From sequence record OQ420740.1: DNA of 64,000 nucleotides; one strand, written 5' to 3'. Both the position numbers and the translations under genes were made by a program. Origin of the DNA: Escherichia phage B9-1. The notes beneath the pieces are model-generated. The model worked only from the letters and a program-made list of their open reading frames with translations. It made no database searches and was not told the origin of the DNA. Positions 2,951 to 30,156 of this stretch are shown here, piece by piece (within the stretch, counting starts at the first letter, position 1; each line of letters starts with the position of its first letter).

Positions 2951-3994
2951 ATGACTAAACCAGTTATCCCTCTTGATATTTGGGCCAATCAGGATGTTGT
3001 GCTTGAAAATACGGGAGAATTGAATAAGTCCCAACCAAAAAAAGAAGAGAGATTGAAAGGTTGGGATATGACACAAAGAGTGGCATGTGAAGTTGTTAAC
3101 TTTGAACTTCACATGCTTTCTGCGTGGTTAAAGCATTTAACAGAAGATGTTGTCCCAGGATGGGATAATAGATTCTTAAGGGTCACTAATAATCTGGCAG
3201 ACGTTCCAGACAAAGCTGCTGCACGTCAAGTTCTCAATGTATACTCGCCTGAAGAAATGGATGACCTTTATGTTGACAAGACTGGAGACACAATGATCCA
3301 GACTCAAACTTTAGGTCTTCAAAGAATTGAGTTTGCATCTGCGTCAACAGACAATGCGGCGATATACACCACCATAACTCCAGACAAGACGATGATGGAT
3401 TTCTGGATTATGGACAACATCGGTGGCGCTGACGGCACAGACCTTGATGATCCTTCTCACCAAATAGACGGTTTCCGTTGGAGATTTCAACCTTCTGGTG
3501 GGCAGCCTGTGTTTTCGGCTATGAAGCTCAATGCTATAACTGCCAACCGTGCAAGACTGGCTATCCAAGGAAATCTTGAATGCAATGATGCAAAAAGCTC
3601 CTCTGCAAATGCCAATGCGGTAACGATACCAAGAGCCACTGTTAATGGACAACAATCCTGCGGCAGCGCTCAAATAGGTGGAAGAGTAGATTGTAACGAT
3701 AAAACCGCCAGGGGTCAATATGCAACAGTTGGTGGGAGAAACGTGGTCCGCAGGGTAAATGGTAGTAGCGCAGATAGCAGTGGTAACCTTACTATCCCTA
3801 TGCCTAGTAGGGGTGTTGAAGATGTAAGGATAGCAAACCGTTTCAGAACCACCTACAGAGAATCAAGAGTATACCCTGGGCATGTAATGTGCTCCGGCAA
3901 TTACGCCTATAAACACCCGTATCAAGGTGACTATTGGACTGGTGCTATTCAAAAATTTGTAAACGGTCAATGGATCACGATATCTTATGCTTAA
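2951..3994 (+). CDS. tail fibre protein, paralog B
   Basis: 347 aa from ATG 2951 (SD GGAG 6 nt upstream; track ORF begins at GTG 2948); conserved N-terminus and C-terminus (QKFVNGQWITISYA) shared with 895..1935, divergent central region. Confidence 0.6.
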   Translation: MTKPVIPLDIWANQDVVLENTGELNKSQPKKEERLKGWDMTQRVACEVVNFELHMLSAWLKHLTEDVVPGWDNRFLRVTNNLADVPDKAAARQVLNVYSPEEMDDLYVDKTGDTMIQTQTLGLQRIEFASASTDNAAIYTTITPDKTMMDFWIMDNIGGADGTDLDDPSHQIDGFRWRFQPSGGQPVFSAMKLNAITANRARLAIQGNLECNDAKSSSANANAVTIPRATVNGQQSCGSAQIGGRVDCNDKTARGQYATVGGRNVVRRVNGSSADSSGNLTIPMPSRGVEDVRIANRFRTTYRESRVYPGHVMCSGNYAYKHPYQGDYWTGAIQKFVNGQWITISYA

Positions 3995-4003
3995 AGAGGG
4001 TAA

Positions 4004-4270
4004 ATGAAATTAACTCAGTTTTTATGGGGGTTGGTTGCGGCATCTGATGACCCTACGAAAGTGTCCCAATCTAAGCTATGGTCAAACATAGGCATGGCAG
4101 TGATGACTGGGGTGTTTATTCATATGGGGTACAATGATACGCTTCCTGAATGGTATGCGTGGATATACGCACCTTCGGTAGCTTGCCCCCAGCTTATTAG
4201 CAAATTCATCTCGCTCCGGTGGGGTTGCCAGCACCCTGACCACGTTAAAAACGAAGAGCAAAAAGCTTAA
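4004..4270 (+). CDS. hypothetical small protein
   Basis: 88 aa ORF with SD AGAGGG; hydrophobic central segment; function unknown. Confidence 0.45.
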   Translation: MKLTQFLWGLVAASDDPTKVSQSKLWSNIGMAVMTGVFIHMGYNDTLPEWYAWIYAPSVACPQLISKFISLRWGCQHPDHVKNEEQKA

Positions 4271-11961: not shown

Positions 11962-12369
11962 TCAGTCCTCGCATTTAACAAATTTTTCTACAGATCCACC
12001 AAGCACAGCTTGTTGTTTGATGGCACTTTCTTCTTCATAGTGGATAGACTTATGTGCCGTACCTCCGAACTTACCTGTGTGGAAGGTGTGCACCCAAATC
12101 TCTTTGGGAAGGGATTTATTCTCTTCTTCCACCAATTCCCACATACCCCACAAGTGATCTGTGATATCTTTGATGAAATACCCCTCGCCGAGGTTTGTAT
12201 TCACACTATAGGCCGATTCGTGATCTCCACAAATATAACGGAAGGCAGTGTACTCCTTCCCAGGTGTGAAGTGGGTATCCATCAGTATAGCTGTTAGAGA
12301 ATTAGGGTCTCGAAAGCCCAAGAACTTTAGTTTAACAATTTCGACGTTCACACTTGCAAGATTATCCAT
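11962..12369 (-). CDS. hypothetical protein
   Basis: ATG at 12369 has strong SD GAGGAG 6 nt upstream; the longer track ORF begins at a TTG (12444) with no SD. Confidence 0.5.
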   Translation of the reverse strand: MDNLASVNVEIVKLKFLGFRDPNSLTAILMDTHFTPGKEYTAFRYICGDHESAYSVNTNLGEGYFIKDITDHLWGMWELVEEENKSLPKEIWVHTFHTGKFGGTAHKSIHYEEESAIKQQAVLGGSVEKFVKCED

Positions 12370-12532
12370 GACAATCTCCTCTGCTTGGTTGATGAGATAA
12401 TCATATATAAATCTGGTGTTGATGTCAAGCTTAATTTTAAGCAATTTGAGAGGGTATTTTATTTAGAAGGGTAATCACACAGAGGCAGGTAGTTTATGAA
12501 GGCATAGGCCTCGTTTGAGGCCTTAAAATAGG

Positions 12533-12916
12533 TTACGACGATACCTTGACAGATTTATCTGATAAAGCTGGGAAACCTAAAGCAGCACCAAGACCGCCAT
12601 ACGCTATCCACCACTGGAGTTCATCGTGGCACCATTTTCCAATCAAGAAGGTGCTGTAGTAGCGGGTCAGTATCTTGGCATATGCTTTAGGATCTGCATT
12701 CTCCGGTATGATAATGCTTGGTGGGCGTTTGTTATGACCACAGCAGCAGTTTAAGGTCTTCAATCCTGCCGCCCATAGGCTCATGATAGGTTTAGCCATG
12801 CACTTATCAAGGCACACACGTTTTTTGCCGTCACGGAGCTTTTTAGGCACATCAACGATAACATTTGGATGCTTGGCACCTTTCACTTTCCAATTATAAG
12901 ATTTACACTTGCACAT
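12533..12916 (-). CDS. hypothetical Cys-rich protein
   Basis: 127 aa ORF with SD GGAG; multiple Cys (CKCK, CLDKC, NCCCGH); function not recognised. Confidence 0.55.
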   Translation of the reverse strand: MCKCKSYNWKVKGAKHPNVIVDVPKKLRDGKKRVCLDKCMAKPIMSLWAAGLKTLNCCCGHNKRPPSIIIPENADPKAYAKILTRYYSTFLIGKWCHDELQWWIAYGGLGAALGFPALSDKSVKVSS

Positions 12917-12946
12917 TTAGTCAGTCTCCATCTAGAAAGCCATATT

Positions 12947-13117
12947 TTACTTAAAGTCTTTGTCACCTATTACGATTGCACGAATCCACTCATTGTGATG
13001 CTCAATGGATGTAAGGTGTAACATAATGCAGTGATTGTCATTACCAAACACGGCTCGATAAGCCTTAGCAGCACCATGATATAACTTCCACATCACGTAA
13101 TGGTATCTTCGTTTCAT
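12947..13117 (-). CDS. small hypothetical protein (56 aa)
   Basis: ATG overlaps the stop of upstream gene 13114..13593 (ATGA coupling); SD GGAG 8 nt upstream; below the 60-aa track cutoff. Confidence 0.35.
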   Translation of the reverse strand: MKRRYHYVMWKLYHGAAKAYRAVFGNDNHCIMLHLTSIEHHNEWIRAIVIGDKDFK

Positions 13118-13593
13118 GGTTCTTTCTCCGGTTCAGGATCTGGATAATCTTCAATAATAAAGGGCCATCCGTTACGCTTAGCGTCAGACTTATACTCAAT
13201 CTCCTTCATTGCAAACTCTAACTGATTCTTAGCCGGAATGCAAGCTGGAGAATCATCAACCCAGATGTCTGGGTAGATATCAAACTGCGCCAGATAAGCG
13301 GCCTTCTGAACGCCTTCAGTATAAAACACTCCAACATCTAACTCCTTGCGCCAGTATTCGATGTCCACGTTGTCTTGAGTGATGAATCGGAAAGTCACAA
13401 GATAGACTGTCCACCCTTCCTTCTTCAGGTCCTTAATAAGGCGGGAGAAGATGAAAGGGCTCGCATTAAACGTTCCATCAAAGTCGATAGCAATGATGTG
13501 GGTGCCGTGACGAGTCTCATATGGATTGCTCGTGGTGAGATTGCTGTAGTTGAAAGGTACTTCTTCTCCGCAGTAGCTGTAGTCCATATTCAC
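13114..13593 (-). CDS. HAD-superfamily phosphatase (nucleotidase / phosphatase-like)
   Basis: 159 aa; HAD motif I IAIDFDGT and later WVDDSP acidic motif. Confidence 0.6.
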   Translation of the reverse strand: MNMDYSYCGEEVPFNYSNLTTSNPYETRHGTHIIAIDFDGTFNASPFIFSRLIKDLKKEGWTVYLVTFRFITQDNVDIEYWRKELDVGVFYTEGVQKAAYLAQFDIYPDIWVDDSPACIPAKNQLEFAMKEIEYKSDAKRNGWPFIIEDYPDPEPEKEP

Positions 13594-13865
13594 ACCTTCT
13601 CGTTGATAAATTTACGGGCGGTTTGGTGAGTTGTTTCTGCTGTCTTCAGAATGATATTAATTTTATTGTCAAGATCATTCATCTCAGCAGTTAATTCAGG
13701 AATCTCTCCAGCATGCATGGTGAAATCATACATAGACATACCCAGGATCTCATTGATTCGGCGGTTGCATTCTGCAGCACGTTGGTTCATTTTCCAAGCT
13801 AACACTAGAGCCTCTTGCGTAGCCTCTAGTGCAAAGTCTAATACGTCAGCTTCTTCTTTCGTCAT
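13590..13865 (-). CDS. hypothetical protein
   Basis: 91 aa ORF, 4-nt overlap with downstream gene (operon coupling). Confidence 0.55.
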   Translation of the reverse strand: MTKEEADVLDFALEATQEALVLAWKMNQRAAECNRRINEILGMSMYDFTMHAGEIPELTAEMNDLDNKINIILKTAETTHQTARKFINEKV

Positions 13866-13921
13866 CTCAGTCTCTCTTGTTGTATTGTTGATAGGTGTAT
13901 GAATGCTTTATAACTCACCTT

Positions 13922-14488
13922 TTATTCAAACTGCAATAGCAAATCCACTACCGCGCTAGGTCTGTCAACAAACTCACCGGGTCCACATGCCCACAGAGGG
14001 TATCCGTCTACATACCGCCAAATCCAACCTGCAGTGTGGAGTTCTAGCAGGGCAGTACCGTCCTTACTGTCAACCACTCTTTCCCACAGTGTTGGGCAGC
14101 GAAGCTTGAGGATCGGATCCCCTCCCTTATACCCATCCATGTAGATACCCATTGCAAAGTTCAGCATCATCTTTTTGTGCACTGACCTCTTACTGAGGGT
14201 GCTCATCACTTCCTCTTTGTGGATGTTTGTAAGCTTCTCCTTGGCTACCTGCAGATCGTTGCAGCCATTGTTCAGAAGATCTTCCAGACACTTGACCCGA
14301 AGGTCGTGAATATCTTTGTCGTGCACCGTTGGTACAGGGTCGTAGCGATATAGCACTGTTGATACAAGGTTGCTCGGGTGTGGGTCTGACAGCAACCCAT
14401 AACCCCAATACTCCTCTGTATCTGAAAGGACAAGACACCCAATGTCTCTGTCAAGCTTTCCTGTGTTGTAAGCCACATTGACCGCCAT
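13922..14488 (-). CDS. hypothetical protein
   Basis: 188 aa ORF in the leftward operon; embedded ORFs in other frames judged spurious. Confidence 0.55.
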   Translation of the reverse strand: MAVNVAYNTGKLDRDIGCLVLSDTEEYWGYGLLSDPHPSNLVSTVLYRYDPVPTVHDKDIHDLRVKCLEDLLNNGCNDLQVAKEKLTNIHKEEVMSTLSKRSVHKKMMLNFAMGIYMDGYKGGDPILKLRCPTLWERVVDSKDGTALLELHTAGWIWRYVDGYPLWACGPGEFVDRPSAVVDLLLQFE

Positions 14489-14490
14489 AA

Positions 14491-14736
14491 TTATAGCTCC
14501 ACTAGCAAAGTGCTCTCAAAATGCCTCTCATGCAGACCACTATAAGGAACCACTTCCACAACACCGTCGCGGATGTATGGAGTCATCATGGTGACATAAT
14601 CACCGAACGGGTTGGCATTATCACTAACCACGACCACATGCTGCCCCTCCTTGGCAGAGTGCCAGATAGATCTGCACTTCATCATGTGTTCGAGAGCGCC
14701 AGGTAAAATCTTGTTACGTTCTTTACGGGTCTTCAT
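14491..14736 (-). CDS. hypothetical small protein
   Basis: 81 aa ORF; tightly packed with neighbours. Confidence 0.5.
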   Translation of the reverse strand: MKTRKERNKILPGALEHMMKCRSIWHSAKEGQHVVVVSDNANPFGDYVTMMTPYIRDGVVEVVPYSGLHERHFESTLLVEL

Positions 14737-15182
14737 AACAGATATAGCTCCTTATGAAAGTGGGCTTTCAATTTCTCACCGAGAAACTTCTTGATACCTT
14801 CCTCTAAAGTGTTTTCGATGTAGTCCAGCTTAACTGCTTCGATAGACATATCATAGATCGCCAGCTCTAAGCTGTCAAGTCCCATCATAGCATGAACCAT
14901 AAGATTTTCATCTTCAGATACATTCAGGGGACTTCCTATAACATCTGGAGGCAGAATAGTTTCCCAATTATTCTGGGCGGTAGATCTCCCGCCATCCACC
15001 TTACGTCTCAGCTCGAATGTATTCTTAGTGTAGAACACTTCATAAGAAACGATACGACTGTCACTCTCATAATAGACGAAGTTCAAGTAGGAGCCCAGCC
15101 GTAGTCGGCAAACTTCTACCCCAAACCATTGTTTCTTATAAGAATTCAGGCTAATGCTGTCGCATTCACGTTTGCTCAACAC
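14733..15182 (-). CDS. hypothetical protein
   Basis: 149 aa ORF overlapping downstream gene by 4 nt. Confidence 0.55.
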   Translation of the reverse strand: MLSKRECDSISLNSYKKQWFGVEVCRLRLGSYLNFVYYESDSRIVSYEVFYTKNTFELRRKVDGGRSTAQNNWETILPPDVIGSPLNVSEDENLMVHAMMGLDSLELAIYDMSIEAVKLDYIENTLEEGIKKFLGEKLKAHFHKELYLL

Positions 15183-15198
15183 GGCTCTCTCCTTCTTG

Positions 15199-15432
15199 TT
15201 AATCTTCGTAAATAATGATTTCTGCTTTAGGTTTTCGTGCTTTCAGGTCCAGCTCTATCCAGTGCACCATCGCTGTTTCAAGAAAAACAGCCTGGATGCA
15301 TCCGTCTTCAGCGTGCCCTACCAGCATAACAAGATCTTCACATTCATCATCTGCATCACGGACATACAAGATCTCTCCAGATTCAAAGTCTTTCACAACC
15401 TGATTGCTGGATAATTTACGAATTTTTGCCAT
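15199..15432 (-). CDS. hypothetical small protein (distant member of the tandem 87-aa family?)
   Basis: 77 aa ORF adjacent to three tandem paralogs, similar size and charge pattern. Confidence 0.5.
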   Translation of the reverse strand: MAKIRKLSSNQVVKDFESGEILYVRDADDECEDLVMLVGHAEDGCIQAVFLETAMVHWIELDLKARKPKAEIIIYED

Positions 15433-15433
15433 A

Positions 15434-15697
15434 TCAGAAACCCTCTAAAAAGCTCTTGTAGAAAATAATCTCAGTATCCACACCAGTCACGATCTTGTCG
15501 TTCCTGATTTCATCTGTAAGATAGGTGTCAAAACGCAGCACCTGTGTGGTATTGTCACACATCCACTCGGCTGTTACCATGGCAAAAATCTTAGCATCTT
15601 CATTATCTGGTGTAAATGTCACCACCTCACCGCATTTAAACTTTTCGATAGGTTGCGTGTTAGCTTTTGGTTCTGCAATGGTGATTTTCGTGGTCAT
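15434..15697 (-). CDS. small protein, tandem paralog 1 of 3
   Basis: 87 aa; shares the G.VV...D...... V(M/A)(I/L)V motif and length with 15697..15960 and 15960..16223. Confidence 0.55.
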   Translation of the reverse strand: MTTKITIAEPKANTQPIEKFKCGEVVTFTPDNEDAKIFAMVTAEWMCDNTTQVLRFDTYLTDEIRNDKIVTGVDTEIIFYKSFLEGF

Positions 15698-15960
15698 TAT
15701 TCTCCTCCTTCTTTTGAATAGCTTGTCTCTCCAAGGATGGTAATTTTGGTGTCAAGCTCTGTAACTTTCATGTTTGGTGGCAGATCGTACAACTCATTAT
15801 TTTCTAAATCGAACCCCCATACACAATGTTCCCCTGTTTTGACAATCATAACTATGTTTTGAATGCCGTCTCCGTCACAACTTACCACGGTCCCACATGG
15901 AAAACTGTCTGCACGCTTTTTGTTCTTCACTTTAGAATTGAATACAATGCTAGTAGCCAT
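15697..15960 (-). CDS. small protein, tandem paralog 2 of 3
   Basis: 87 aa; start overlaps the stop of the upstream gene; paralogous to neighbours. Confidence 0.55.
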   Translation of the reverse strand: MATSIVFNSKVKNKKRADSFPCGTVVSCDGDGIQNIVMIVKTGEHCVWGFDLENNELYDLPPNMKVTELDTKITILGETSYSKEGGE

Positions 15961-16223
15961 TATTGTTCCTCCACCATAACTTCGCCAAGAATTTCTATGC
16001 AGGCATCCATTTCTGTAACAACCAAGGTGTGAGGTAGTTCTGCAAACACCTTTCTGAACAGGTCAAATACCCCAACATATATGTTTGCAGGATGTGATCT
16101 CACAACAAGTGCTGTATTCACATCTCCAAGTTCATCAACAAACATCACCACAGTACCTGGAGCTACTGAAGACAGATACTTCTTAGTTTTACGGTTGGAT
16201 GCAAATTTTAACTCTGTTGCCAT
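15960..16223 (-). CDS. small protein, tandem paralog 3 of 3
   Basis: 87 aa; MATELKFASNRKTKK... resembles MATSIVFNSKVKNKK... of paralog 2. Confidence 0.55.
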   Translation of the reverse strand: MATELKFASNRKTKKYLSSVAPGTVVMFVDELGDVNTALVVRSHPANIYVGVFDLFRKVFAELPHTLVVTEMDACIEILGEVMVEEQ

Positions 16224-16238
16224 AAATAATCTCCTCCT

Positions 16239-17699
16239 TTATTTAACGTACTCGATTAATTCCACAGTTCTCCCAAAGCTAGGGATATAATTTTTATTAT
16301 ACCCTTCGGTGAGAACCCATAAAGTATCGTACTTTTTCCACTTGTTGTCAACAGCCTTTTGTTCAAAGTTATGCTCAAAGTATAGGTCGGTAAGGACGAT
16401 GACATCTTTTGCATTTGGTATGTTAGCATCCAGATACTCGAACACGCAGGCGGCTGTTGTGCCCCATGTTGAGTGGACCTCATAGTTGATCATCTCATCG
16501 ATGTTACCGCGAGTGTATACTTTAACCTCTCCAACCTCGGTTGACCAACAGAACATCGTAACCTTAAACTCTTTATACAAATTGCACAACCCGGTGATCT
16601 CATTGAACATTTTCTTTAAAGTTCTTTGTGAGATCGATCCAGAAACGTCTAAAGCCACCACAATATCTATAGTGTTTTCCGGATTACGACCAGGAACAAT
16701 AACGTGCTGATTCTTGTTTATAGCTCCAACTTTTCGCATTGTGGTGGTCAAAGACCCAGATCGGCGACCCGGTTTTCTGTAGGTTAACTCAGCCTTCCTT
16801 TTAGATAACATACGTTGCTTAATAATATCTATATAATTGATTACAGGCTTGCCTCTGTTTTTGACAAACTCGCGCACCGCCTCGGGGCAACGACCTCCTG
16901 AAGCTTGCATTGCTGCTTCCAACATGTCACCAGAGTCCTGCATGGCCTGATCTTTATCCGATTGACTGATTACTGGTTGCGGCTGATCATACCCCATAGC
17001 CTTTCCAAGATCATCACTAGTGCCACCGTTCCCGCTCATGTGATCATCGGTTTGTCGTTTATCTCCTTGGGAGTTCTCTCCTTTACCGTTCTTACTTTTA
17101 CCGCTATTCTGATCTCTTTGTTTATCAAGAACTGCATAGACGTTCTCAGCAATCCATCCATGAAACTTCATGTCGCAGTAGCAACTAGCTAAGAAGCCAA
17201 AAGGCTTACCTTTTACGAACTCAGTGCTTTTCCCCTTCGGGAAGAAAACACAAGGAGGCTTGCTAAAGTCAACCACAAGACCTGTGTTGATAACGTGATC
17301 ACAAGCAATATTGAACAGTTCCGGCTCAAAGCTTTTACCACGGACCAGATGATCACAGATAATATGCCCCACCTCATGTGACAGAAGAAAGGCCACCTCT
17401 TTCACAGATTTTGGGGAATAGAAAACCTCAGCCATCTCAAACTGCTTGTCAGTCAGAGATGCTTTAAGAATGGTTTTACGCTCATCTGCCAACCCCATAA
17501 TGAACTCAGGGCTGTAGTAGATGCGTTTATGGTCTGTTGCCATAGTGGAGCACCATGTGTGGTTTTCTACGAACTGCAACCCTGACAACAGTGTGCCATA
17601 AAACGGCAGCTTTTCAAGAAGGTACATGCGAGCGGCCTGCAGCATTCGCAAGGCATCATCTTTTTGTGCGGTAATGATTTCTGAACTTCTGCTATCCAT
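16239..17699 (-). CDS. metallopeptidase-like (HExxH) + von Willebrand factor A (vWA) domain protein
   Basis: N-terminal HEVGHIICDH (HExxH) and C-terminal VALDVSGSIS (MIDAS DxSxS) match the DUF2201_N putative metallopeptidase + VWA-like architecture that partners with MoxR ATPases; start taken at ATG 17699 (SD GGAG), the track start 17720 lies inside an intergenic hairpin. Confidence 0.65.
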   Translation of the reverse strand: MDSRSSEIITAQKDDALRMLQAARMYLLEKLPFYGTLLSGLQFVENHTWCSTMATDHKRIYYSPEFIMGLADERKTILKASLTDKQFEMAEVFYSPKSVKEVAFLLSHEVGHIICDHLVRGKSFEPELFNIACDHVINTGLVVDFSKPPCVFFPKGKSTEFVKGKPFGFLASCYCDMKFHGWIAENVYAVLDKQRDQNSGKSKNGKGENSQGDKRQTDDHMSGNGGTSDDLGKAMGYDQPQPVISQSDKDQAMQDSGDMLEAAMQASGGRCPEAVREFVKNRGKPVINYIDIIKQRMLSKRKAELTYRKPGRRSGSLTTTMRKVGAINKNQHVIVPGRNPENTIDIVVALDVSGSISQRTLKKMFNEITGLCNLYKEFKVTMFCWSTEVGEVKVYTRGNIDEMINYEVHSTWGTTAACVFEYLDANIPNAKDVIVLTDLYFEHNFEQKAVDNKWKKYDTLWVLTEGYNKNYIPSFGRTVELIEYVK

Positions 17700-17711
17700 T
17701 AAAACTCCAGA

Positions 17712-17728
17712 AGGGGCCATTGGCCCCT
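17712..17728 (-). other. intergenic GC hairpin (terminator/attenuator-like)
   Basis: AGGGGCCATTGGCCCCT, same type as the 11721 terminator, between 17733..18722 and 16239..17699; only a short T-run follows on the minus strand. Confidence 0.4.
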
Positions 17729-17732
17729 GTCA

Positions 17733-18722
17733 TTATTTAACGTGCTTGAAAATACCAGCCAACTCGGTCATTGTCATGCGAGTGGTCTTCATAAGGTCTG
17801 TCATAGCCTTCTCCATGATTGGAGATACTACCATGAAGTTACCTTTGGTGAAACCTTTGTTCCAGTCGGTAACTAATAGGGGTTTAAGTCCGGCACCGAG
17901 ACGTTCACCAGTTAAAGCACAACATTTTCGAATGTATGTGCTCTTAAACTGGCTGAATGACAGATCAACTTTCATACCTGCATCGTAGAACGTCTGGCAA
18001 TAGAAAGTGTAAGCTTTGGCAATCTCAACATCGTCAGGCAGTGCAGGAACCTCTTCTGTAAGCTCTTCTTCGACCCCTTGAGGCTCTTTTTCCTCTTCGT
18101 AAGCCTGTTGCGTCATCTCTTCAATCTCCTCTACTACAGGCTCGTTTACAATGTCAGAAATGTGCTTGTTGGCTCCACGATTAGCCATGAAGTTTTTAAA
18201 ATCCTGCATTGGTGACATATCTTCCTCCCATTCTTCGTCAAAGAGTGCTAGTTTATCCTCTTCCGTTCCATATTGCAAGATGAAATCTTCAAAAGTGTAA
18301 TCACCTTTCAATTTCTCCATACGCTCTTCGCTCAGGTGGAGCATCATCTGCTGGACAATTTTTCGATCAGTTTTGTCTTTAATCAAGACTGCGGTCTTTT
18401 TATCTACCAGGCAGTCCTTTAGGGAGTTGCATCTCAATCCCACCACACAACAATTATCAACCGCATAAGGACCTTCATCATCTATCCGCTCCAGAGATGG
18501 GTAGAAAGGATTTCCCAGTCCGTTTTCATCTGTGTGCATGTCGAAAGGTATAAGGGTATAGTCGCATACTCCCTCTCCTAAAAGTTTTTTACCAAATAGG
18601 AGATATTCTTCCCATGACAGGTTGAACTCTATATCCCGTTTCCGTGCGTTATTCTGTTTGCGTCTGTATTTTTTGAGCAAGCGCTCTAACTCTTCTGGTG
18701 TATAATATTTTTCAAGATTCAT
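17733..18722 (-). CDS. hypothetical acidic protein
   Basis: ATG at 18722 with SD AAGAGA; the track start 18782 is a TTG lying inside the divergent promoter region; Glu-rich central region. Confidence 0.55.
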   Translation of the reverse strand: MNLEKYYTPEELERLLKKYRRKQNNARKRDIEFNLSWEEYLLFGKKLLGEGVCDYTLIPFDMHTDENGLGNPFYPSLERIDDEGPYAVDNCCVVGLRCNSLKDCLVDKKTAVLIKDKTDRKIVQQMMLHLSEERMEKLKGDYTFEDFILQYGTEEDKLALFDEEWEEDMSPMQDFKNFMANRGANKHISDIVNEPVVEEIEEMTQQAYEEEKEPQGVEEELTEEVPALPDDVEIAKAYTFYCQTFYDAGMKVDLSFSQFKSTYIRKCCALTGERLGAGLKPLLVTDWNKGFTKGNFMVVSPIMEKAMTDLMKTTRMTMTELAGIFKHVK

Positions 18723-18753
18723 GAGTTGTCTCTTGTTCTCTGTGGGTGGAGAA

Positions 18754-18782
18754 ATCTTACCAAGTGCCTGAGAAGATGTCAA
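18754..18782 (-). promoter_or_regulatory. sigma70-like promoter (leftward operon)
   Basis: Minus strand TTGACA, 17-bp spacer, TAAGAT, about 30 nt upstream of ATG 18722; approximate. Confidence 0.4.
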
Positions 18783-18795
18783 CCTGAAAAACGTG

Positions 18796-18824
18796 TTGAC
18801 TTTACTCTAAATCCACGATATAGT
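18796..18824 (+). promoter_or_regulatory. sigma70-like promoter (rightward block)
   Basis: TTGACT, 17-bp spacer, TATAGT, about 40 nt upstream of ATG 18865 in a divergent intergenic region. Confidence 0.5.
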
Positions 18825-21092: not shown

Positions 21093-21362
21093 ATGTTATA
21101 CCAGCAGTACGAACTTCGTGCAGAAAAAGAATTAAATTTTGACAAAGATATTCACAGATATTATTATGGGAAAGTTAGAGGGCAAGCAAGAAAGTGTACT
21201 CCAACACTCTTTTATGCCAGCAGACGACTAGCGCCAGAAGAGGCAACAGCAGAAAGGGTTGCATATGGCTGGAGAGTTGCGTATGATATTGACAGATCCG
21301 ATGTGATGTCTGTTTTGGAAAACTTTGAAAACACTTACACACAAGTAGAGGACTTTTACTAA
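21093..21362 (+). CDS. hypothetical small protein
   Basis: 89 aa, SD AAGGAG. Confidence 0.55.
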   Translation: MLYQQYELRAEKELNFDKDIHRYYYGKVRGQARKCTPTLFYASRRLAPEEATAERVAYGWRVAYDIDRSDVMSVLENFENTYTQVEDFY

Positions 21363-22546
21363 TGTCAAGAAACGTATTCGAAAGTGGTCAAATCACTGTC
21401 CGCGAGTTGCCAGCTATTATTCAATTTGCCCAGCGTCATAACCGATCTGTCCTGATTTTAGGACCGATGGGCGTGGGGAAGAGCCAGGTGATGAAGCAGA
21501 TTGCTGATAGTATGTTCGGTGAGCGAGATGACAACCTTGTTGACGTGCGACTGTCAGATAAAGACCCTGCTGACTTATCTGGGCTACCTATCCCTGTAGA
21601 GTCGGATGGGACTACACGTACAGTGTTTGCAATTCCAGAATTTTGGCCTGCAGATCCGGACTGGAGCGGAATTATCTTTCTAGACGAGCTTACTCATGCA
21701 GATAACTACCTGCAGAAGGTTGCAATGCAAATTATGCTCGACCACAAGTGCGGCACCTATGCATTTCCTAAGGGCTCTGTTTTTGTAGCTGCAGGTAACC
21801 GTGCTACAGACGGTGCTGTTCTTTCGGCGCTCGAAGCTCCTCTAGCTAACCGCTTTATCATTGTAGAAGTTACAAGCAGTGCAGAGGTGTTTATTGAGGA
21901 CTATGCATTCCTTAATGGGGTGCACTCCTCTGTAATTGGATATCTGAAAAGAGTCCCATCAGCCATTGATAATTATGAGGCCATGGCTGAGATTAATTGT
22001 CCATCTTTTGCCACACCGCGATCTTGGGTTGCTGCATCTGACATCTTGCACGATTTTGACAGCGGTATTATTTCTGACGCTATGGCCCGTGTCCTTCTAC
22101 AAGGTGCCATTGGTCACACTGCAGCGGTAGAAATTTGGACCTACCACACCAAGAAACGAAACTTGCCAGAAATCGGTCGGATTATGGCAGGAGGCTGCAA
22201 AGAATATGTAGGTCCTAAGCAGCCAGACATCTTGTGGATTCTGGGGTCTGAAGGTTGTATCGCTATTCGTAATATGATGGAAAATGCAAGTATCTCCGAC
22301 GAAGATCTCGTCAGCTGTGTGGCAAACTTCCTTGATTTCCTTTGGGAAAATTTCAAGGATGAGAACCGAGACTTTGTATTCTCAGTCTTTATGGCGATGA
22401 TGAAACCTAACGCCTTAGGAAATGCCTTACTTATTGGTAAAGGCAGGGACAAGATCGTTGCTCAGCTGATCAAAGCATACCCAAACCTGATGAAGATTGT
22501 AAAAGAGTTTGGTGAAGAGTTTAGCGCCATTTTAGCTAAAGCTTGA
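21362..22546 (+). CDS. MoxR-type AAA+ ATPase
   Basis: 394 aa; Walker A GPMGVGKS and Walker B IIFLDELTHA in MoxR-like spacing; likely partner of the vWA protein at 16239..17699. Confidence 0.7.
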   Translation: MSRNVFESGQITVRELPAIIQFAQRHNRSVLILGPMGVGKSQVMKQIADSMFGERDDNLVDVRLSDKDPADLSGLPIPVESDGTTRTVFAIPEFWPADPDWSGIIFLDELTHADNYLQKVAMQIMLDHKCGTYAFPKGSVFVAAGNRATDGAVLSALEAPLANRFIIVEVTSSAEVFIEDYAFLNGVHSSVIGYLKRVPSAIDNYEAMAEINCPSFATPRSWVAASDILHDFDSGIISDAMARVLLQGAIGHTAAVEIWTYHTKKRNLPEIGRIMAGGCKEYVGPKQPDILWILGSEGCIAIRNMMENASISDEDLVSCVANFLDFLWENFKDENRDFVFSVFMAMMKPNALGNALLIGKGRDKIVAQLIKAYPNLMKIVKEFGEEFSAILAKA

Positions 22547-22949: not shown

Positions 22950-22976
22950 CCCCGCTTCGGCGGGGATTTTCTATTT
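22950..22976 (+). terminator. rho-independent terminator
   Basis: CCCCGCTTCGGCGGGG (GC stem, TTCG loop) followed by ATTTTCTATTT. Confidence 0.65.
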
Positions 22977-22985
22977 GGAGCTATT

Positions 22986-23486
22986 GTGAAAATTAAAATC
23001 TTTGCTATTATTTTGAGCGCATTTTTATCGCTGCCTGTTGTTGCAGCACCAAAACAAAAAGTATATCACACTTGCAAGCCGTCGGATACTAAGGAAAACA
23101 TTCTAGCATGCAATATCTACAGGGAGGCTAGAGGGGATGGCACGATGGGTATGCTGGCATCCGGATTTGCCACACTAAACAGGAAATCTCACCCCAAATA
23201 CCCAGACACTATAAGAAAGATTGTCTACCAACCTAACCAGTTTTCGTGGACAAACCACGGCAAAACTTTTAAGGTGACAGAAAAAGATTCATGGGATCAC
23301 GCTAAAAGTCTTGCAAAGATGCTTCTAAAGGTCTATAATAACAACCATGTTGCATACATGGCTATGGATATAACAGGCGGAGCAACACACTACCATACAA
23401 CAAAAGTACGACCGAAATGGGCAAAAAAGATGCAGAGGACAGCTCAATTCGGGAGCCATATCTACTACAAGGAGCGCAATAAATGA
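22986..23486 (+). CDS. secreted cell-wall hydrolase (SleB/CwlJ-like, Hydrolase_2 family)
   Basis: GTG start; N-terminal signal peptide MKIKIFAIILSAFLSLPVVAAP; motifs YREARGDG ... LNR ... YQPNQFSW match the SleB-type cell-wall hydrolase signature. Confidence 0.55.
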   Translation: MKIKIFAIILSAFLSLPVVAAPKQKVYHTCKPSDTKENILACNIYREARGDGTMGMLASGFATLNRKSHPKYPDTIRKIVYQPNQFSWTNHGKTFKVTEKDSWDHAKSLAKMLLKVYNNNHVAYMAMDITGGATHYHTTKVRPKWAKKMQRTAQFGSHIYYKERNK

Positions 23487-25465
23487 TTGTAAACAGCAAT
23501 GAAACTAAAGCGGTGCTAACTGGGAATATGGAGGTAACCAGGGGATCAATTTCTCTGAACAAAGAGACTTTTGGGCTAATCATCAAAGGGATTTATGAAG
23601 ATAAGGTACTGGCAAGCTGCCGTGAACCGATCTTCAATGCTGTGGACTCACATGTTGAGTCTGGACGAGGTGATGTACCGATCATCATTCACTCTCCTAC
23701 AGACCTTGAACCATACTTCTTTGTGCAGGACGTTGGATTAGGCATGTCAGAAGAGATGGTCCGTAACACTTTCATGAACCTAGGTGAGTCGACCAAGCGC
23801 AACAGCAACGCTCTGGTAGGCAATAAAGGTGTTGGTTCAAAGGCCCCGTTCAGCATGGTGGACACTTTCGATGTAATCAGTGTGCACAACGGTGTGGAAA
23901 GCACATACCTATTGTTCTTGGACCAGGGTATCCCAAATGTCACCAAGATCCGTGAGCGGAAGACTGAAGAGCACAACGGGGTAAAAGTTCAGTTTCATGT
24001 TAAGAAAGAGCATGTTCTGAAATATCGCACCGCTATTGCATCATGCCTGCGCTATGCAAAATTTCCGTTCACTGTCACCGACCCGATGACGAGCAAGATG
24101 CTGGAGGGAGACAAAGTAGAGGCGCAGTATTATTATGAAAAAGATGGTTGGAAGATGACCATCCTGAAGGGTTATACCAGCTCTGACGAGAGTCGTGTGG
24201 TAATGGGTCACCAACCTTACCGTTCTAAGTTCCTGGAGACACTAATAGATTATCCTGCAATTTGTGTAGAGATCCCTATCGGAGATTGCAATATTAACCC
24301 AGGGCGTGAATGGACCATAGAAGGTCACGACGATGGTGGATTCCAAGAGCGTTTGGAAGCTTTTGTCAAAGAAGGCATTCGCCTTCGTGGAGCAGAAGTT
24401 GTTGCAGAACTGGAGACAGCAAAAACATCCTCAGAAGCACGCGAGATGATGAAGAACAGTGGAGTGTTCGGGCACATCTTCGGTAAGAATTTTATGTATG
24501 ACCGCTGGGAAGAAACAGGGCTAGGAAATTTGGGGGACTGCGAGATCTTCGCTGGCGGCTTAAATAAAGGCCGCATAGGTTACGCCTGCTACGGAAAGGT
24601 AGAATTCTTACGGGGAGTTTATTTAGTATTTAACGACGGAGACGGCAAATATAACCGGAATAAGTGTAACTACTTAAGCGAGATTACCGGACGCAACGTT
24701 TTCTATTGCCGTAACACGGATCTGGTGAAAGAGTTTAAAGAGGCGGCACACCATCCGTTTTTTGCAGATACGGTCAAATTGTTATCGGAGCTTCCACGCC
24801 GACCTACGAAGAAAGGTGAAACCAAAACCCGTTACGAACCAGGCTATTGGGTTAAAAAACTTGAGAAGGATGGTTACTTCCGGCGTGAGCGTATTACTAA
24901 GGCAGAGTTCAGGAAGATTAAGCACTGCATACCGTATGAGGGGGATATCCAACGCGGAAGTTGTTGGCTAGGGCAGATGAGCAACATCTACCAGCAAGAT
25001 TATGACCGTGTGCGTTCGGCACTCCAGATTCCTGAAGGGGAAGATCTGTACCTGGTGTCGGAATCTCGTCTGCTTTGGACTGATCCTGATTGCCAATATG
25101 TTACAGAGAAGAATGTGGAACATTTGTTGAAAGAGGATGCTTGGAAATTCTTACTAACTCGCGCAGCAAATGAAACTTCATATGACAGCCTGTACAGACA
25201 GTTAGGTAAAATTATCCCCATGCAGGATTTTGGAAGTTATCGGCCACATTTCCACAAGTGGGAAGGTAGCACCACGTGGAAGTACGGTGAGCTAAATCAT
25301 CGTGCCAAAATCTTAATCGCCAACCGGGTTAAGTGCGGGAAGGCCTATATTGCAAGATTGGAAAAGAAATATCCACTTTTGAAGCATGTAGGCTTGAAAT
25401 ATTGGGACACTCCTGCTATGATTGAATACCGTGAACTGATTGATACAAAGAATAACATCAAATAA
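23483..25465 (+). CDS. GHKL-type ATPase (rIIA-like)
   Basis: 660 aa; N-box NAVDS, G1 box DVGLGMS, G2 box GNKGVGSKA in GHKL order; T4 rIIA carries such an N-terminal domain; rIIA assignment is by analogy only. Confidence 0.6.
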   Translation: MIVNSNETKAVLTGNMEVTRGSISLNKETFGLIIKGIYEDKVLASCREPIFNAVDSHVESGRGDVPIIIHSPTDLEPYFFVQDVGLGMSEEMVRNTFMNLGESTKRNSNALVGNKGVGSKAPFSMVDTFDVISVHNGVESTYLLFLDQGIPNVTKIRERKTEEHNGVKVQFHVKKEHVLKYRTAIASCLRYAKFPFTVTDPMTSKMLEGDKVEAQYYYEKDGWKMTILKGYTSSDESRVVMGHQPYRSKFLETLIDYPAICVEIPIGDCNINPGREWTIEGHDDGGFQERLEAFVKEGIRLRGAEVVAELETAKTSSEAREMMKNSGVFGHIFGKNFMYDRWEETGLGNLGDCEIFAGGLNKGRIGYACYGKVEFLRGVYLVFNDGDGKYNRNKCNYLSEITGRNVFYCRNTDLVKEFKEAAHHPFFADTVKLLSELPRRPTKKGETKTRYEPGYWVKKLEKDGYFRRERITKAEFRKIKHCIPYEGDIQRGSCWLGQMSNIYQQDYDRVRSALQIPEGEDLYLVSESRLLWTDPDCQYVTEKNVEHLLKEDAWKFLLTRAANETSYDSLYRQLGKIIPMQDFGSYRPHFHKWEGSTTWKYGELNHRAKILIANRVKCGKAYIARLEKKYPLLKHVGLKYWDTPAMIEYRELIDTKNNIK

Positions 25466-25475
25466 GGAGACCAAG

Positions 25476-26681
25476 ATGATTTTCATCTACGAACATTTCA
25501 AAACTCGTAAAGAAGCACGTGACCGCCGTGCAGAACTTGAGAAGAAGGGTTTCACATGCGCTATTGAGAAAGGTAACACAACCTGGACACTGGCAGTAGG
25601 TGCCCCAGAGTTGTTCGATCCTGACCGTGACAGCGTCTGCTACACCCGTGAGGATTTTGAAACCCGTGAAGAGGCCCGTTTATTTCGATATGGGCTGGAA
25701 GATAACGGTAAGTACGCCATGATCTTAGATTTAGGAGAAGGTTCCGTTAAACGTTGGGGTGTGGTATATCCACTGTGTGTTGTTCACGGTGTAGGGTTCA
25801 CTGGGGTAGCAATCAAGTCAGAAGAACCTTTAGTAGAAGTAAAAGACCCGGTGCTGGAGGTGGTGAGCAGTGTGTCTCAGCAACAGACCCGAAGCATCGA
25901 GCCTTTGGTGGTTATTTGCGGGGAACTCCTCCAGATCACCTGCAACGAAGGTATTTTTGAAATTCGCCGCAGTGAAAGTGAGGAAGTTTACCAGAAAGTC
26001 TTCGACCATATCTCTGTTCAGGAATATGACGAGGCAATTGGTGAAATCCTTGTCTGGCTGGAACGCAAGAATGAGTTCACCACACTTGCAGACAACCTGA
26101 TCATGAAAGATGGTAAGCTCTACTACTACGGTGTAGAGATGCGATCCACCATTGCAAAGAAAATTGAGAAAGATTATGCAGACGGAACACTGGATGACCG
26201 CTATGTGAAATTCCTCGTTCGCCTGCTACGCAATCCTTCTGCAAAATCTGTAAACATGCTCTACGATTTTATGCAGGCAAACGACATTCAGATTGCAGAA
26301 GATGGTCGAATCATTTGCTACAAAGGGGTTCAGTTTAACGGCGACAAGTGGGTGGATTGGCACAGTGGTAAAGTCCCACAATACCAGGGGGCTTTTGTAT
26401 CCATGCCTCGTAACTTTGTAGAGGATGATCCGGAAGCTGCATGCTCTTATGGCCTGCACTGTGCCAGCAAAGAGTATGCAAAGAGCTACGGAACTGTGAT
26501 GACGGTTATGGTTGACCCTGCCGATGTAGTTAGTGTACCTTACCAACACAACAGCGCCAAGTGCCGTGCATGCCGCTACGAAATCGTAGTAGCTCCAGAA
26601 TCGCGCAAAGATGGCGACCCAATTGAGTACGTGGTTGACCGCGACGGTAATACTATCGACATTATCTACGAGGAGGCGTAA
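25476..26681 (+). CDS. hypothetical protein (rIIB-like by position only)
   Basis: ATG 25476 with SD AAGGAGA (track start 25440 overlaps the upstream gene); two ~35-aa N-terminal repeats (TRKEARDRRAELEK / TREEARLFRYGLED). Confidence 0.55.
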   Translation: MIFIYEHFKTRKEARDRRAELEKKGFTCAIEKGNTTWTLAVGAPELFDPDRDSVCYTREDFETREEARLFRYGLEDNGKYAMILDLGEGSVKRWGVVYPLCVVHGVGFTGVAIKSEEPLVEVKDPVLEVVSSVSQQQTRSIEPLVVICGELLQITCNEGIFEIRRSESEEVYQKVFDHISVQEYDEAIGEILVWLERKNEFTTLADNLIMKDGKLYYYGVEMRSTIAKKIEKDYADGTLDDRYVKFLVRLLRNPSAKSVNMLYDFMQANDIQIAEDGRIICYKGVQFNGDKWVDWHSGKVPQYQGAFVSMPRNFVEDDPEAACSYGLHCASKEYAKSYGTVMTVMVDPADVVSVPYQHNSAKCRACRYEIVVAPESRKDGDPIEYVVDRDGNTIDIIYEEA

Positions 26682-28051
26682 TGGAAAAAGGGCAGTACGA
26701 TGTAGGCACAGATGCTGCCCTTGTTGCAATCATGAGCGGTGAGAATGTCTTCGTAAGTGGACCTGGTGGAACCGGGAAGACATATCTTATCAACATGATC
26801 CAGTCCATGTATGGAGACTCTTGCATAACGGTTGCCCCGACAGGGGTAGCCGCTTTAAACGTTAATGGAGCAACAGCGCACCGAACTTTCGATCTTGCCG
26901 CAGGTGTGAGCATGGAGTCAGACTGGACAGCAATAAGGGCAAAAACAGCAAAGCCTCTGAAAAGCAAGGCATTTACCATCCTGATTATCGATGAAATCTC
27001 TATGATCCGTGCTGACAAGTTCATAGAGATGGATAGAAAACTCCGCTTTCTTCGGAAAAATGACAAACCTTTCGGAGGCATTCAGGTGTTATTGTTTGGA
27101 GATTTCTACCAAGCACCTCCAGTTGTCTCTTCTATGGAGAAAGAAGCCTACTTCAACTTCTACCACACAGACCTGTGTTGCTATACAGAATCTTGGGAGG
27201 ATCTTAATCTTCACAACATAGCCTTAGTAGACCAGTTCCGTCAGGAATCTGTTCGCTTCGCCACAATGTTGAACTGTGTTCGTGAAGGTCGTCGCATAAA
27301 AGAGGTTGTAGCAGAGCTTAACACTCGTTGCTATCATGGTGGTGTCCCAACAGATGCCTTGACCATCTGTGCCACCAATAAGCAAGCAGAGGAGGTGAAC
27401 AGACGTTTCTATGATGCCATCAAGGCCCCAGAGAAGACCTACATTGGTAAAATGAAAGGTAAGTTCCCTTCCACACTACCTGTGGAGCAGGAAATGAGGC
27501 TGAAGATAGGGATGAAGGTTATGATAACCTCAAACGATGTTGACCCTACTCACAAAGTTCCGTATTATGTTAACGGGACACGTGCCACAGTGGTAAAATT
27601 CAAGACCAAATCCGTAGTAGTTGAGCTAGAAGACGGAACACAGGTTGAAATTGAGCCAAGATTGTGGGAGAATAACGAGTACAAACCTTCCCAGAGGTAC
27701 AATATTGCCGAAAGGAAGATGGAGAAGTTCATAGAGAGGGTTGTGATCGGGTCTTATGAGCAACTTCCTTTGAAATCTGGGTACGCAGTAACATCGCATA
27801 AAAGTCAAGGACTTACGTTAGATTGTTACAACCTAGACCTCGGAAAGAACGGAGCTTTCTCTCCCGGAATGACGTATGTTGCCTTGAGTCGGGTTAAGAC
27901 GATACAAGGAATAAACTTGTTGCGTCCATTAAGAGAGGTGGATATTATTGTTGACCCGAGAGTCGTAGAGTTTTATAATACAACTTTCCCTGGCTTAGAC
28001 GAGAAAGTCAGGAAAGATTTTGAAACTAGAGCAGAAAAGGGGGACGTATGA
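26681..28051 (+). CDS. dda: Dda-like SF1 DNA helicase (RecD/Pif1-like)
   Basis: 456 aa; Walker A GPGGTGKT, Walker B IIDEISM, C-terminal helicase motifs (VTSHKSQG, YVALSRV). Confidence 0.75.
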   Translation: MEKGQYDVGTDAALVAIMSGENVFVSGPGGTGKTYLINMIQSMYGDSCITVAPTGVAALNVNGATAHRTFDLAAGVSMESDWTAIRAKTAKPLKSKAFTILIIDEISMIRADKFIEMDRKLRFLRKNDKPFGGIQVLLFGDFYQAPPVVSSMEKEAYFNFYHTDLCCYTESWEDLNLHNIALVDQFRQESVRFATMLNCVREGRRIKEVVAELNTRCYHGGVPTDALTICATNKQAEEVNRRFYDAIKAPEKTYIGKMKGKFPSTLPVEQEMRLKIGMKVMITSNDVDPTHKVPYYVNGTRATVVKFKTKSVVVELEDGTQVEIEPRLWENNEYKPSQRYNIAERKMEKFIERVVIGSYEQLPLKSGYAVTSHKSQGLTLDCYNLDLGKNGAFSPGMTYVALSRVKTIQGINLLRPLREVDIIVDPRVVEFYNTTFPGLDEKVRKDFETRAEKGDV

Positions 28052-28389
28052 GTTTGTGGAGAAATATCGTTAACTACGTGTGTGGCAATCCGACTCCTGA
28101 AGAGAAGGATGTTGTGATTCACGATTTTACTAAAAGATCTCGTGAAAAAGATCTACTGCTAACAAAGGTGACTGATAAAGATCCTGCAGTAGGGGACTGG
28201 GCAGGTTTTGCGTTTACATCGGACAAATACACCTTTAACAAAGGTGACTACCTTGTTGTGGATTTTAACGAAGATATTGAGGGTGCTGAACCTTACTATC
28301 AAACCCTTATTGTTGCAGGGTGTGTTGATCTCTCTGCAGGCATGCACAGTTTGATTCTTTTTGAGCTTGACTCTGAAGACCTTGAGTAG
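28048..28389 (+). CDS. hypothetical protein
   Basis: 113 aa, ATGA overlap with the helicase gene. Confidence 0.5.
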   Translation: MSLWRNIVNYVCGNPTPEEKDVVIHDFTKRSREKDLLLTKVTDKDPAVGDWAGFAFTSDKYTFNKGDYLVVDFNEDIEGAEPYYQTLIVAGCVDLSAGMHSLILFELDSEDLE

Positions 28390-28450
28390 TAAGATGTGAG
28401 TATAAAGGGGAGGCACTCCTCCCCACAAAAACTAAGGAGAGCACCAAACG

Positions 28451-29794
28451 ATGAGTAAAACCAAATTAGAACTTACCTGGATAGGTAAGAACGAGCGCAA
28501 AAAGCTAGAGCCTCACATTTTGCGAGAAGATTCGAGCAAGTCTTATCACGCCAGTAAAAAGGTGACCGAAAACGATATTTTTGATAATAAACTGATTTTT
28601 GGAGATAACTTACTGGCATTGAAGGCACTAGAGCAAGAGTATGCAGGCAAAGTGAAGTGTGTTTACATAGACCCGCCATTTAATACCGGAAGGGATTTTG
28701 AGCACTACGATGATAGCCTGGAGCACTCCATTTGGCTGGGCTTAATGCGGGACAGATTAGAAATAATTCGTAATCTGCTAAGCGATGATGGAGTGATATT
28801 CGTTCACTTAGATGACTGCGAAATGGCTTATTTAAAAGTCTTGATGGACGAGATTTTTGGTCGTGCAAATCAGTTAAATACCATATCGATGACTACAAAT
28901 TGCCCTTCAGGCTTTAAGGCAACAGGAACTACAGTTTTCTCCACAGCAAACTTTTTGCTTGTATATGCAAAAGATCGTACCAAGAAACCACTTAACAAAA
29001 TCTATATACCTAAAGAGTATGATACGGGATATAACAAATATCTATTAAACCCAGATGACCATTATAAAAGTTGGACGTGGTGCGGTATTGCCGATGCGTT
29101 TGCAAAGGCCAATGGCTATAAAGATACAAAAGAAGCCAAGAAAAAACTGCCTGATACATTTGATGATGAATTAGCACAATTTGCAATTGATAATGCAGAA
29201 CGTGTATTTCAATCCGTTGCAATTGGCGGTGGTGCCAAAATAAAGAGAAAAGAAACTATCGAGAAGTCAAAGAAAGATAGGGATAAGGTTTATGTACATC
29301 CAAATGAGGATGTCGAAGGCTTTTATATCGCAAATGGTAGGCAAATGGTCTTTTATTCCAATAGGCTTTTGGAAATTGACGGTGAGATGCAGCCTGCTGA
29401 ACTAATAACTGATGTTTGGACTGACATTAGTTGGAATGGAATAGCAAATGAAGGGGGCGTTAGTTTCAAAAATGGAAAAAAACCTGAAGCGCTTTTGAAG
29501 CGGATTTTAAAAATGTGTACGCGAGAAGGAGATTTAGTATTGGATTCATTCGGCGGTTCGGGGACTACTGCTGCTGTAGCTCACAAGATGAAAAGACGTT
29601 GGATCTCTGTTGAGCTAGGAGATCATTGTCATACCCATATTATTCCACGCTTGCAAAAAGTGATCGATGGTGAAGATCAAAGTGGTATTTCTAAATCTGT
29701 AAACTGGCAAGGTGGTGGGGGCTTTCGTTATTACAAACTTGCCCAGAACTTAGTTGTGAAAGATAAGCTTGACTCAGAAGAAGATTTAGAGTAA
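28451..29794 (+). CDS. DNA methyltransferase (beta-class N6-adenine/N4-cytosine, Mod-like)
   Basis: 447 aa; catalytic motif IV DPPF (VYIDPPFNTG) near the N-terminus and SAM motif I FGGSGTT near the C-terminus (beta-class order). Confidence 0.7.
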   Translation: MSKTKLELTWIGKNERKKLEPHILREDSSKSYHASKKVTENDIFDNKLIFGDNLLALKALEQEYAGKVKCVYIDPPFNTGRDFEHYDDSLEHSIWLGLMRDRLEIIRNLLSDDGVIFVHLDDCEMAYLKVLMDEIFGRANQLNTISMTTNCPSGFKATGTTVFSTANFLLVYAKDRTKKPLNKIYIPKEYDTGYNKYLLNPDDHYKSWTWCGIADAFAKANGYKDTKEAKKKLPDTFDDELAQFAIDNAERVFQSVAIGGGAKIKRKETIEKSKKDRDKVYVHPNEDVEGFYIANGRQMVFYSNRLLEIDGEMQPAELITDVWTDISWNGIANEGGVSFKNGKKPEALLKRILKMCTREGDLVLDSFGGSGTTAAVAHKMKRRWISVELGDHCHTHIIPRLQKVIDGEDQSGISKSVNWQGGGGFRYYKLAQNLVVKDKLDSEEDLE

Positions 29795-29850
29795 TATTTA
29801 AAATATCGAAGGAGAGGTCTACTCTTAACACAAGATAAGGAGAACACCGA

Positions 29851-30156
29851 ATGATGAAGCGTTATAAACCATATACTTTTGAAATCGATTTCGAACTTGA
29901 CAATATGCTCACTGTAGAGGCTCAGGCAGTTGTCCAGTTGCCAGATCCAGAGTGCCGTGATTCTGATGTTGATTATTATGGATTTAGACAGATTACTGAT
30001 GTGCATGTTTACCACAACGGAGAAGAGGTGGATTTTCACCAACTGCCGAACGATATGCGCCACTCGATTTACAAACGGGCAGCACGTGAACTAGAGTCCT
30101 ATCTGGATGCAGCAACAACAGCGGCTGCATTTGCTGAAGAGACAGGAGGTTTCTGA
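29851..30156 (+). CDS. hypothetical protein
   Basis: 101 aa, SD AAGGAGA. Confidence 0.5.
   Translation: MMKRYKPYTFEIDFELDNMLTVEAQAVVQLPDPECRDSDVDYYGFRQITDVHVYHNGEEVDFHQLPNDMRHSIYKRAARELESYLDAATTAAAFAEETGGF

Follow-up and report, generated by a model that had tools for sequence, protein, structure and literature searches.

The rIIA-rIIB locus

The 64,000-nucleotide stretch of Escherichia phage B9-1 analysed here (sequence record OQ420740.1, hereafter the window) carries two adjoining + strand open reading frames (ORFs), one of 660 residues at 23483-25465 and a second ending at 26681, which we assign by sequence comparison to the phage genes rIIA and rIIB. A preliminary description, made from the letters alone, had put them forward as a possible rIIA/rIIB-like pair, a GHKL ATPase followed by a partner with internal repeats, and the family searches reported below place both proteins in the rII families. 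The first gene ends at 25465 and the second starts on the same strand at 25476, where an ATG with AAGGAG 8 nt before it gives a product of 401 residues rather than the 402 first proposed.

23483-25465, + strand: rIIA orthologue, 660 residues, with an N-terminal GHKL (Bergerat) ATPase domain, then a transducer-like second domain, and a C-terminal region specific to the family
25476-26681, + strand: rIIB orthologue, 401 residues, assigned through phrog_609, a BLASTP match to T4 rIIB and PF26926 in a 99%-identical homologue

The 3.2-kb region spanning the two genes is 99.4-99.8% identical to EcoIv14a_Aya (Vequintavirinae sp.) and to the Escherichia phages S127 BCL3, vB_EcoM-ECP26 and NHEP1, and the window is, on the strength of this DNA identity, assigned to the genome of an rV5-like E. 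coli myophage (Vequintavirus, about 136 kb). At least 90% identity to the region is found in 118 phage records, and in most of the annotated records among the matches listed the genes are named rIIA and rIIB (as 'protector', 'lysis inhibitor' or 'membrane integrity protector'); the pair is thus already known, being annotated as rIIA/rIIB in many GenBank genomes of this phage group. Particularly close is EdH4 (Vequintavirus murica), in which EdH4_00063 and EdH4_00062 have lengths equal to those of the window proteins (660 and 401 residues), share 97% and 97% protein identity with them and differ by point substitutions only, within the same gene order of hydrolase, rIIA, rIIB and helicase; in the deposited EdH4 record the products of both are labelled 'hypothetical protein', and rII appears nowhere but in the notes. 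Other rV5-like phages close to the window pair are ECP26, FV3 and Bas54. Sixteen records titled 'Campylobacter phage', 15 of them with Campylobacter jejuni as host, also match the region, one of which (MG065655, Campylobacter phage C2) aligns across the entire region at 92.9% identity; the records are apparently of Vequintavirus, with a host entry that is unexpected or wrong.

The two genes travel together. The order rIIA, rIIB, PIF1 helicase is kept in relatives whose rIIB is 49% and 43% identical to that of the window, as well as in Bas54, and phage RB43 encodes a natural RIIA-RIIB fusion of 1049 residues (BFVD Q56C47). The phrog_609 profile, 1055 positions long, is matched by rIIA proteins in its N-terminal part and by rIIB proteins in its C-terminal part, as fits a fusion of the RB43 type. 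Long GHKL homologues were considered as further fusion candidates and rejected, P0150 and P0151 containing no rIIB core. Likewise, a 330-residue protein of Escherichia phage AV108 annotated 'rIIA-rIIB membrane associated lysis inhibitor' (3231-4223 of the AV108 stretch L007) is a plain rIIB beside a separate rIIA, and its name was apparently inherited from the true 1049-residue fusion of RB43.

A GHKL ATPase assigned to the RIIA family

The N, G1 and G2 boxes that had been read in the 660-residue protein are all intact, and the nine residues at their heart (E48, N52 and D55; D83, G85 and G87; G113, G116 and G118) are invariant, nine out of nine, across 22 rIIA homologues with identity down to 20%.

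23624-23647, + strand: GHKL N box, E48-P-I-F-N52-A-V-D55, with E48, N52 and D55 invariant in the homologue alignment
23729-23743, + strand: GHKL G1 box, D83-V-G-L-G87, with D83, G85 and G87 invariant
23819-23836, + strand: GHKL G2 box, G113-N-K-G-V-G118, followed by the invariant S119 and K120

Residues 50-147 match the Pfam family HATPase_c_3 (E 1.8e-8; 34.9 bits against a curated cut-off of 25), and nearly the whole protein, residues 1-658, matches positions 1-724 of the 725 in phrog_612 (RIIA), with an E value of 1.4e-123. The best PHROG family of T4 rIIA is also 612, again over its full length. In pairwise comparison by BLASTP, the window and T4 proteins are 28% identical over residues 1-190 (E 4e-21), the C-terminal two thirds being not alignable. 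Taken together, these comparisons place the GHKL protein of the window in the RIIA family.

The preliminary description had allowed that the GHKL domain might instead belong to a gyrase- or MutL-like protein, or that neither protein might be related to the rII families. What rIIA shares with gyrase, MutL and Hsp90 is a fold-level resemblance at 12-15% identity: the Bergerat fold and the N, G1 and G2 boxes are common to the GHKL-transducer ATPases (Hsp90/TRAP1, GyrB/ParE/topoisomerase II, MutL and MORC), and the second domain of rIIA resembles the transducer domain of the Hsp90, type II topoisomerase, MORC and MutL ATPases, whereas its C-terminal 350 residues are family-specific. Neither the Toprim domain and partner DNA-cleavage subunit of a type II topoisomerase such as GyrB, nor the C-terminal dimerisation/endonuclease domain of MutL, is present, and a Pfam scan of rIIA gave no significant match beyond the GHKL region. 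NCBIfam contains no rII model and returned just weak sacsin and Hsp90 GHKL matches below their cut-offs. The PDB holds no structure of rIIA or rIIB, and a sequence search of it with both proteins found no relative, the best E values of 0.1-0.16 corresponding to chance or weak Hsp90-type matches.

The conserved core of rIIB

The partner had been described as without obvious similarity to rIIB, a statement that does not survive direct comparison. Over the 200 residues 173-372 it is 37% identical to T4 rIIB (BLASTP E 5e-39), the aligned core including the motifs G-L-H and D-V-V-S-[IV]-P. It matches phrog_609 (RIIB) with an E value of 1.6e-61, 609 likewise being the best PHROG family of T4 rIIB, and PF26926 (Phage_T4_rIIB) is precomputed for its homologues from 99% down to 35% identity. 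On these comparisons, the 401-residue protein can be assigned unambiguously to rIIB.

The rIIB core is widespread, being found by tblastn in 2877 phage records, 132 of which cover at least 80% of the protein. A Foldseek comparison of the core with BFVD gave 31 matches at E <= 1e-3, most of the named ones being rIIB proteins, and no solved structural relative of the core was found. One 498-residue metagenomic protein combines TPR repeats with a segment 100% identical to 55% of rIIB; as it comes from a single 3.3-kb contig, it is probably an assembly chimera and not a real fusion.

A double repeat at the N-terminus of rIIB

The architecture of rIIB outside the core is unlike that of its T4 counterpart. 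In an AlphaFold2 model, the source of the secondary structure and predicted local distance difference test (pLDDT) values given below, the protein opens with two beta-alpha-beta-beta units followed by a disordered linker.

25482-25601, + strand: rIIB repeat unit 1, modelled as beta-alpha-beta-beta, residues 3-42; R11, A14, R15 and W37 invariant
25632-25784, + strand: rIIB repeat unit 2, modelled as beta-alpha-beta-beta, residues 53-103; F61, R64, E66, A67, R68, R93 and W94 invariant
25785-25898, + strand: rIIB linker, low-confidence and poorly conserved, residues 104-141 (low confidence in the model from 101); pLDDT 24-28; variable and indel-rich in the alignment
25905-26666, + strand: rIIB conserved core and C-terminal tail, residues 144-397; pLDDT mostly 80-95; about 170-372 common to T4 rIIB

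The repeat is real. Local alignment of residues 1-50 with residues 51-110 scores 44, a value that none of 2000 shuffles reached (20.4 +/- 4.1), and both units carry the motif F-x-[ST]-R-x-[DE]-A-R ... [RK]-W-x-V, which does not vary among relatives with as little as 36% identity. The two repeats first noticed by eye therefore stand, although the unit is about 40-50 residues long and not about 35.

T4 rIIB, by contrast, opens with a helix-turn-helix (HTH), matched by HTH_7 at residues 7-44 (E 5.6e-5) and by HTH_7, HTH_28 and HTH_29 within residues 7-50. The window rIIB gave no HTH match in Pfam at E <= 0.1, and the HTH is accordingly a feature of the T4 clade that the Pfam core family does not require. 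A profile of the double repeat, run against 1.84 billion representative proteins, recovered nine clusters at E <= 0.001, in which the full-length proteins (about 400-430 residues) look like rIIB of the same clade and the others are short fragments; in that search, the module occurs in no other kind of protein. It is, then, a clade-restricted double beta-alpha-beta-beta module that replaces the HTH of T4 rIIB.

The one named domain that the module brings to mind is SPOR (PF05036), a septal peptidoglycan-binding domain of about 70 residues with an RNP-like fold, built from two repeats of about 35 residues. The Pfam model matches repeat 1 at residues 8-42, scoring 19.3 bits in the whole protein and 23.5 with the N-terminus isolated, on either side of the cut-off of 21, and the match spans half of the profile. 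Points of likeness are the two-fold internal repeat with an F-x-[ST]-x-x-[ED]-A motif helix and a single GenBank record that calls the rIIB gene 'SPOR domain-containing protein', whereas in rIIB each repeat is a complete beta-alpha-beta-beta unit and a low-confidence loop lies between the two. We looked for an export signal or membrane anchor in rIIB and found none; its N-terminus is not hydrophobic, and the highest Kyte-Doolittle score over 19 residues is 1.69 at residues 95-113, a Gly/His/Pro-rich segment modelled as a strand and then disorder. Peptidoglycan binding by rIIB is unlikely because the SPOR match is marginal, extending over half of the domain, and because there is neither an export signal nor a transmembrane segment, and this reading of the module was set aside.

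Function of the pair and alternative explanations

The function of the pair is best approached through its orthologues. Adler et al. (Nat Microbiol 2025, PMC11879866) knocked down RIIA or RIIB with dCas13d (CRISPRi-ART) in phages T4, MM02, EdH4, SUSP1 and N4, and report, in summary for the five phages, that the knock-downs were without effect on Rex-free E. coli but that plating efficiency fell on cells with lambda RexAB expression. To call the pairing and function open, as the preliminary description did, was thus an overstatement, since a plating test of the kind it proposed is reported there for the 97%-identical EdH4 orthologues. In Bas54 (Vequintavirinae), whose gene order of hydrolase, rIIA, rIIB and helicase is that of the window, rIIA and rIIB tolerate transposon insertions on K-12 (HIDEN-SEQ; supplement to 10.1101/2025.11.20.689424). 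RIIB has also been seen from the side of the host, T6 RIIB alone triggering a CARD-gasdermin defence system, with toxicity in E. coli (PMC10312443).

We consider it very likely that the two genes form the rIIA-rIIB counter-defence module of Vequintavirus, orthologous to rIIA/rIIB of T4. In both phages, rIIA directly precedes rIIB on the same strand, and the best PHROG families are 612 and 609. The T4 proteins are of 725 and 312 residues, the window rIIB differing from its shorter counterpart in the repeats and disordered linker at one end and in a 30-residue tail at the other; the surroundings differ too, T4 having topoisomerase gene 60 and denB as neighbours and the window a cell-wall hydrolase and a PIF1 helicase.

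A different role is implied by the label 'RIIA/RIIB lysis inhibitor', under which the pair would be a lysis-inhibition module delaying holin-mediated lysis on superinfection, and the PHROG category of both families is indeed 'lysis'. That label goes back to the rapid lysis seen in plaques of T4 r mutants, and lysis inhibition proper in T4 requires rI, rIII and the holin and is not known to need rII. The gene for a secreted cell-wall hydrolase lies directly 5' of rIIA and overlaps its start, and the weak SPOR likeness of the rIIB N-terminus would also suit such a role, but rIIB lacks any signal peptide or transmembrane segment that would bring it to the cell wall. Moreover, rII knock-down in five phages, EdH4 among them, is reported (PMC11879866) to have no phenotype in the absence of Rex, and we regard a primary role in lysis inhibition as highly improbable.

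Equally improbable is a main role for rIIB in transcription, as proposed for T4-type rIIB, in which it would modulate the phage programme with rIIA as its ATP-dependent regulator. Its listing as a specific transcription factor (Iyer et al. 2021, PMC7824862) was made because of the HTH of T4 rIIB, the very segment in place of which the window protein has its two beta-alpha-beta-beta units, and the EdH4 orthologue is still reported (PMC11879866) to counter RexAB, which argues that the shared function lies in the core and not in the HTH. A third alternative, in which the GHKL protein would be an enzyme acting on DNA, akin to gyrase/topoisomerase II or MutL, and the downstream gene an unrelated accessory, is scarcely credible: its Bergerat fold and boxes are theirs, but identity to them is at the fold level noted above, Pfam finds nothing significant outside the GHKL region, all 660 residues fit the RIIA profile, the score of TRAP1 (Hsp90) equals or exceeds those of the DNA enzymes, and the downstream protein is rIIB.

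Several points weigh against the rIIA-rIIB counter-defence interpretation itself. Beyond residue 190, rIIA is tied to T4 rIIA through the family profile and not through pairwise BLASTP. The functional evidence comes from orthologues (EdH4 and Bas54) rather than from the window phage, and the RexAB result from knock-down rather than deletion. ATP hydrolysis, dimerisation, complex formation and the step of Rex that is blocked are all things that we infer. Finally, neither rIIA nor rIIB has a predicted transmembrane segment, and direct action on the membrane protein RexB would thus need peripheral association.

Within these bounds, a mechanism can be proposed for the counter-defence module. Like other ATPases that join a GHKL to a transducer domain, rIIA may act as an ATP-driven, dimerising clamp, working in complex with the rIIB core. 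Such a complex could conceal from RexA the signal of infection that activates it, or could block RexA from opening the RexB channel; in either case the membrane would stay polarised and abortive infection would be averted. The location of the complex, or its binding partner, would be determined by the variable N-terminal module of rIIB. As for the anti-Rex activity that the orthologues share, its most likely seat is the conserved core of rIIB, acting with rIIA, and not the N-terminal module, because the EdH4 orthologue, which lacks the HTH, is reported to counter RexAB.

Genes flanking the pair

Four genes, for the hydrolase, rIIA, rIIB and the helicase, are tightly packed 3' of a terminator-like hairpin, and a terminator is annotated at the corresponding position in EdH4.

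22950-22975, + strand: terminator-like hairpin CCCCGC-TTCG-GCGGGG with a T-rich tail, the upstream limit of the hydrolase/rIIA/rIIB/helicase transcription unit
22986-23486, + strand: SleB/CwlJ-type cell-wall hydrolase with a signal peptide, Pfam Hydrolase_2 E 2.1e-19
26681-28051, + strand: PIF1/Dda-like helicase, Pfam PIF1 E 1.8e-33, phrog_325

The stop codon of the hydrolase gene overlaps the start of rIIA (ATGA), and that of rIIB overlaps the start of the helicase gene (TAATG), so that the four genes form one apparent operon. The hydrolase has a hydrophobic N-terminus (Kyte-Doolittle score 2.29), and a Hydrolase_2 gene 5' of rIIA is also found in a Klebsiella-phage relative (L009) and in Bas54, and not in a further relative (L008). 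That a secreted wall hydrolase is seemingly co-transcribed with rII, and that the rIIB N-terminus is weakly SPOR-like, is a curious conjunction. The helicase is a single intact ORF of 456 residues in the window and in EdH4, whereas in ECP26 it is annotated as two coding sequences (9199-9930 and 10010-10567 of the ECP26 stretch L001, within a helicase region of 9199-10567), which suggests a frameshift or a sequencing error in that record. In Bas54, insertions in the orthologous helicase gene are strongly depleted, with a log2 fold change of -6.3 in one comparison of the HIDEN-SEQ tables.

Further from the pair, a MoxR-like AAA+ ATPase gene (21362-22546, + strand; phrog_1297, E 3e-110) precedes the terminator at 22950 and is two genes away from the rII operon. 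On the other side, an N6/N4 DNA methyltransferase gene (28451-29794, + strand; Pfam N6_N4_Mtase, E 1e-43) sits where the GC content of the window is lowest (0.398 at 28001-30000, against about 0.44-0.46 nearby), a position that hints at its more recent acquisition. An ORF of 1878 residues at 6074-11710 (+ strand) is followed by a block of minus-strand genes at 12000-18800 with reversed GC skew, two of which (about 16.2-18.8 kb) have ECP26 orthologues annotated 'anti-sigma factor'. No tRNA genes were found across the whole 64-kb window.

Implications for rII biology

As a finding, the pair itself adds little, being annotated already and having an anti-RexAB role reported for a near-identical orthologue. 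What small interest it has lies in the HTH-less rIIB. How rII neutralises Rex-type abortive infection is a question about 70 years old, on which this clade offers one small handle. The double repeat might direct the rII complex to another cellular site or ligand, or might hide rIIB from sensors that recognise T-even rIIB, such as CARD-gasdermin. The more general proposition, that the N-terminal module of rIIB is an interchangeable targeting or evasion domain in which the T4-type HTH has been swapped in Vequintavirinae and relatives, we hold to be speculative and rather improbable. Were it true, the region of rIIB that counters Rex could be told apart, by comparison between clades, from the region that host sensors recognise.

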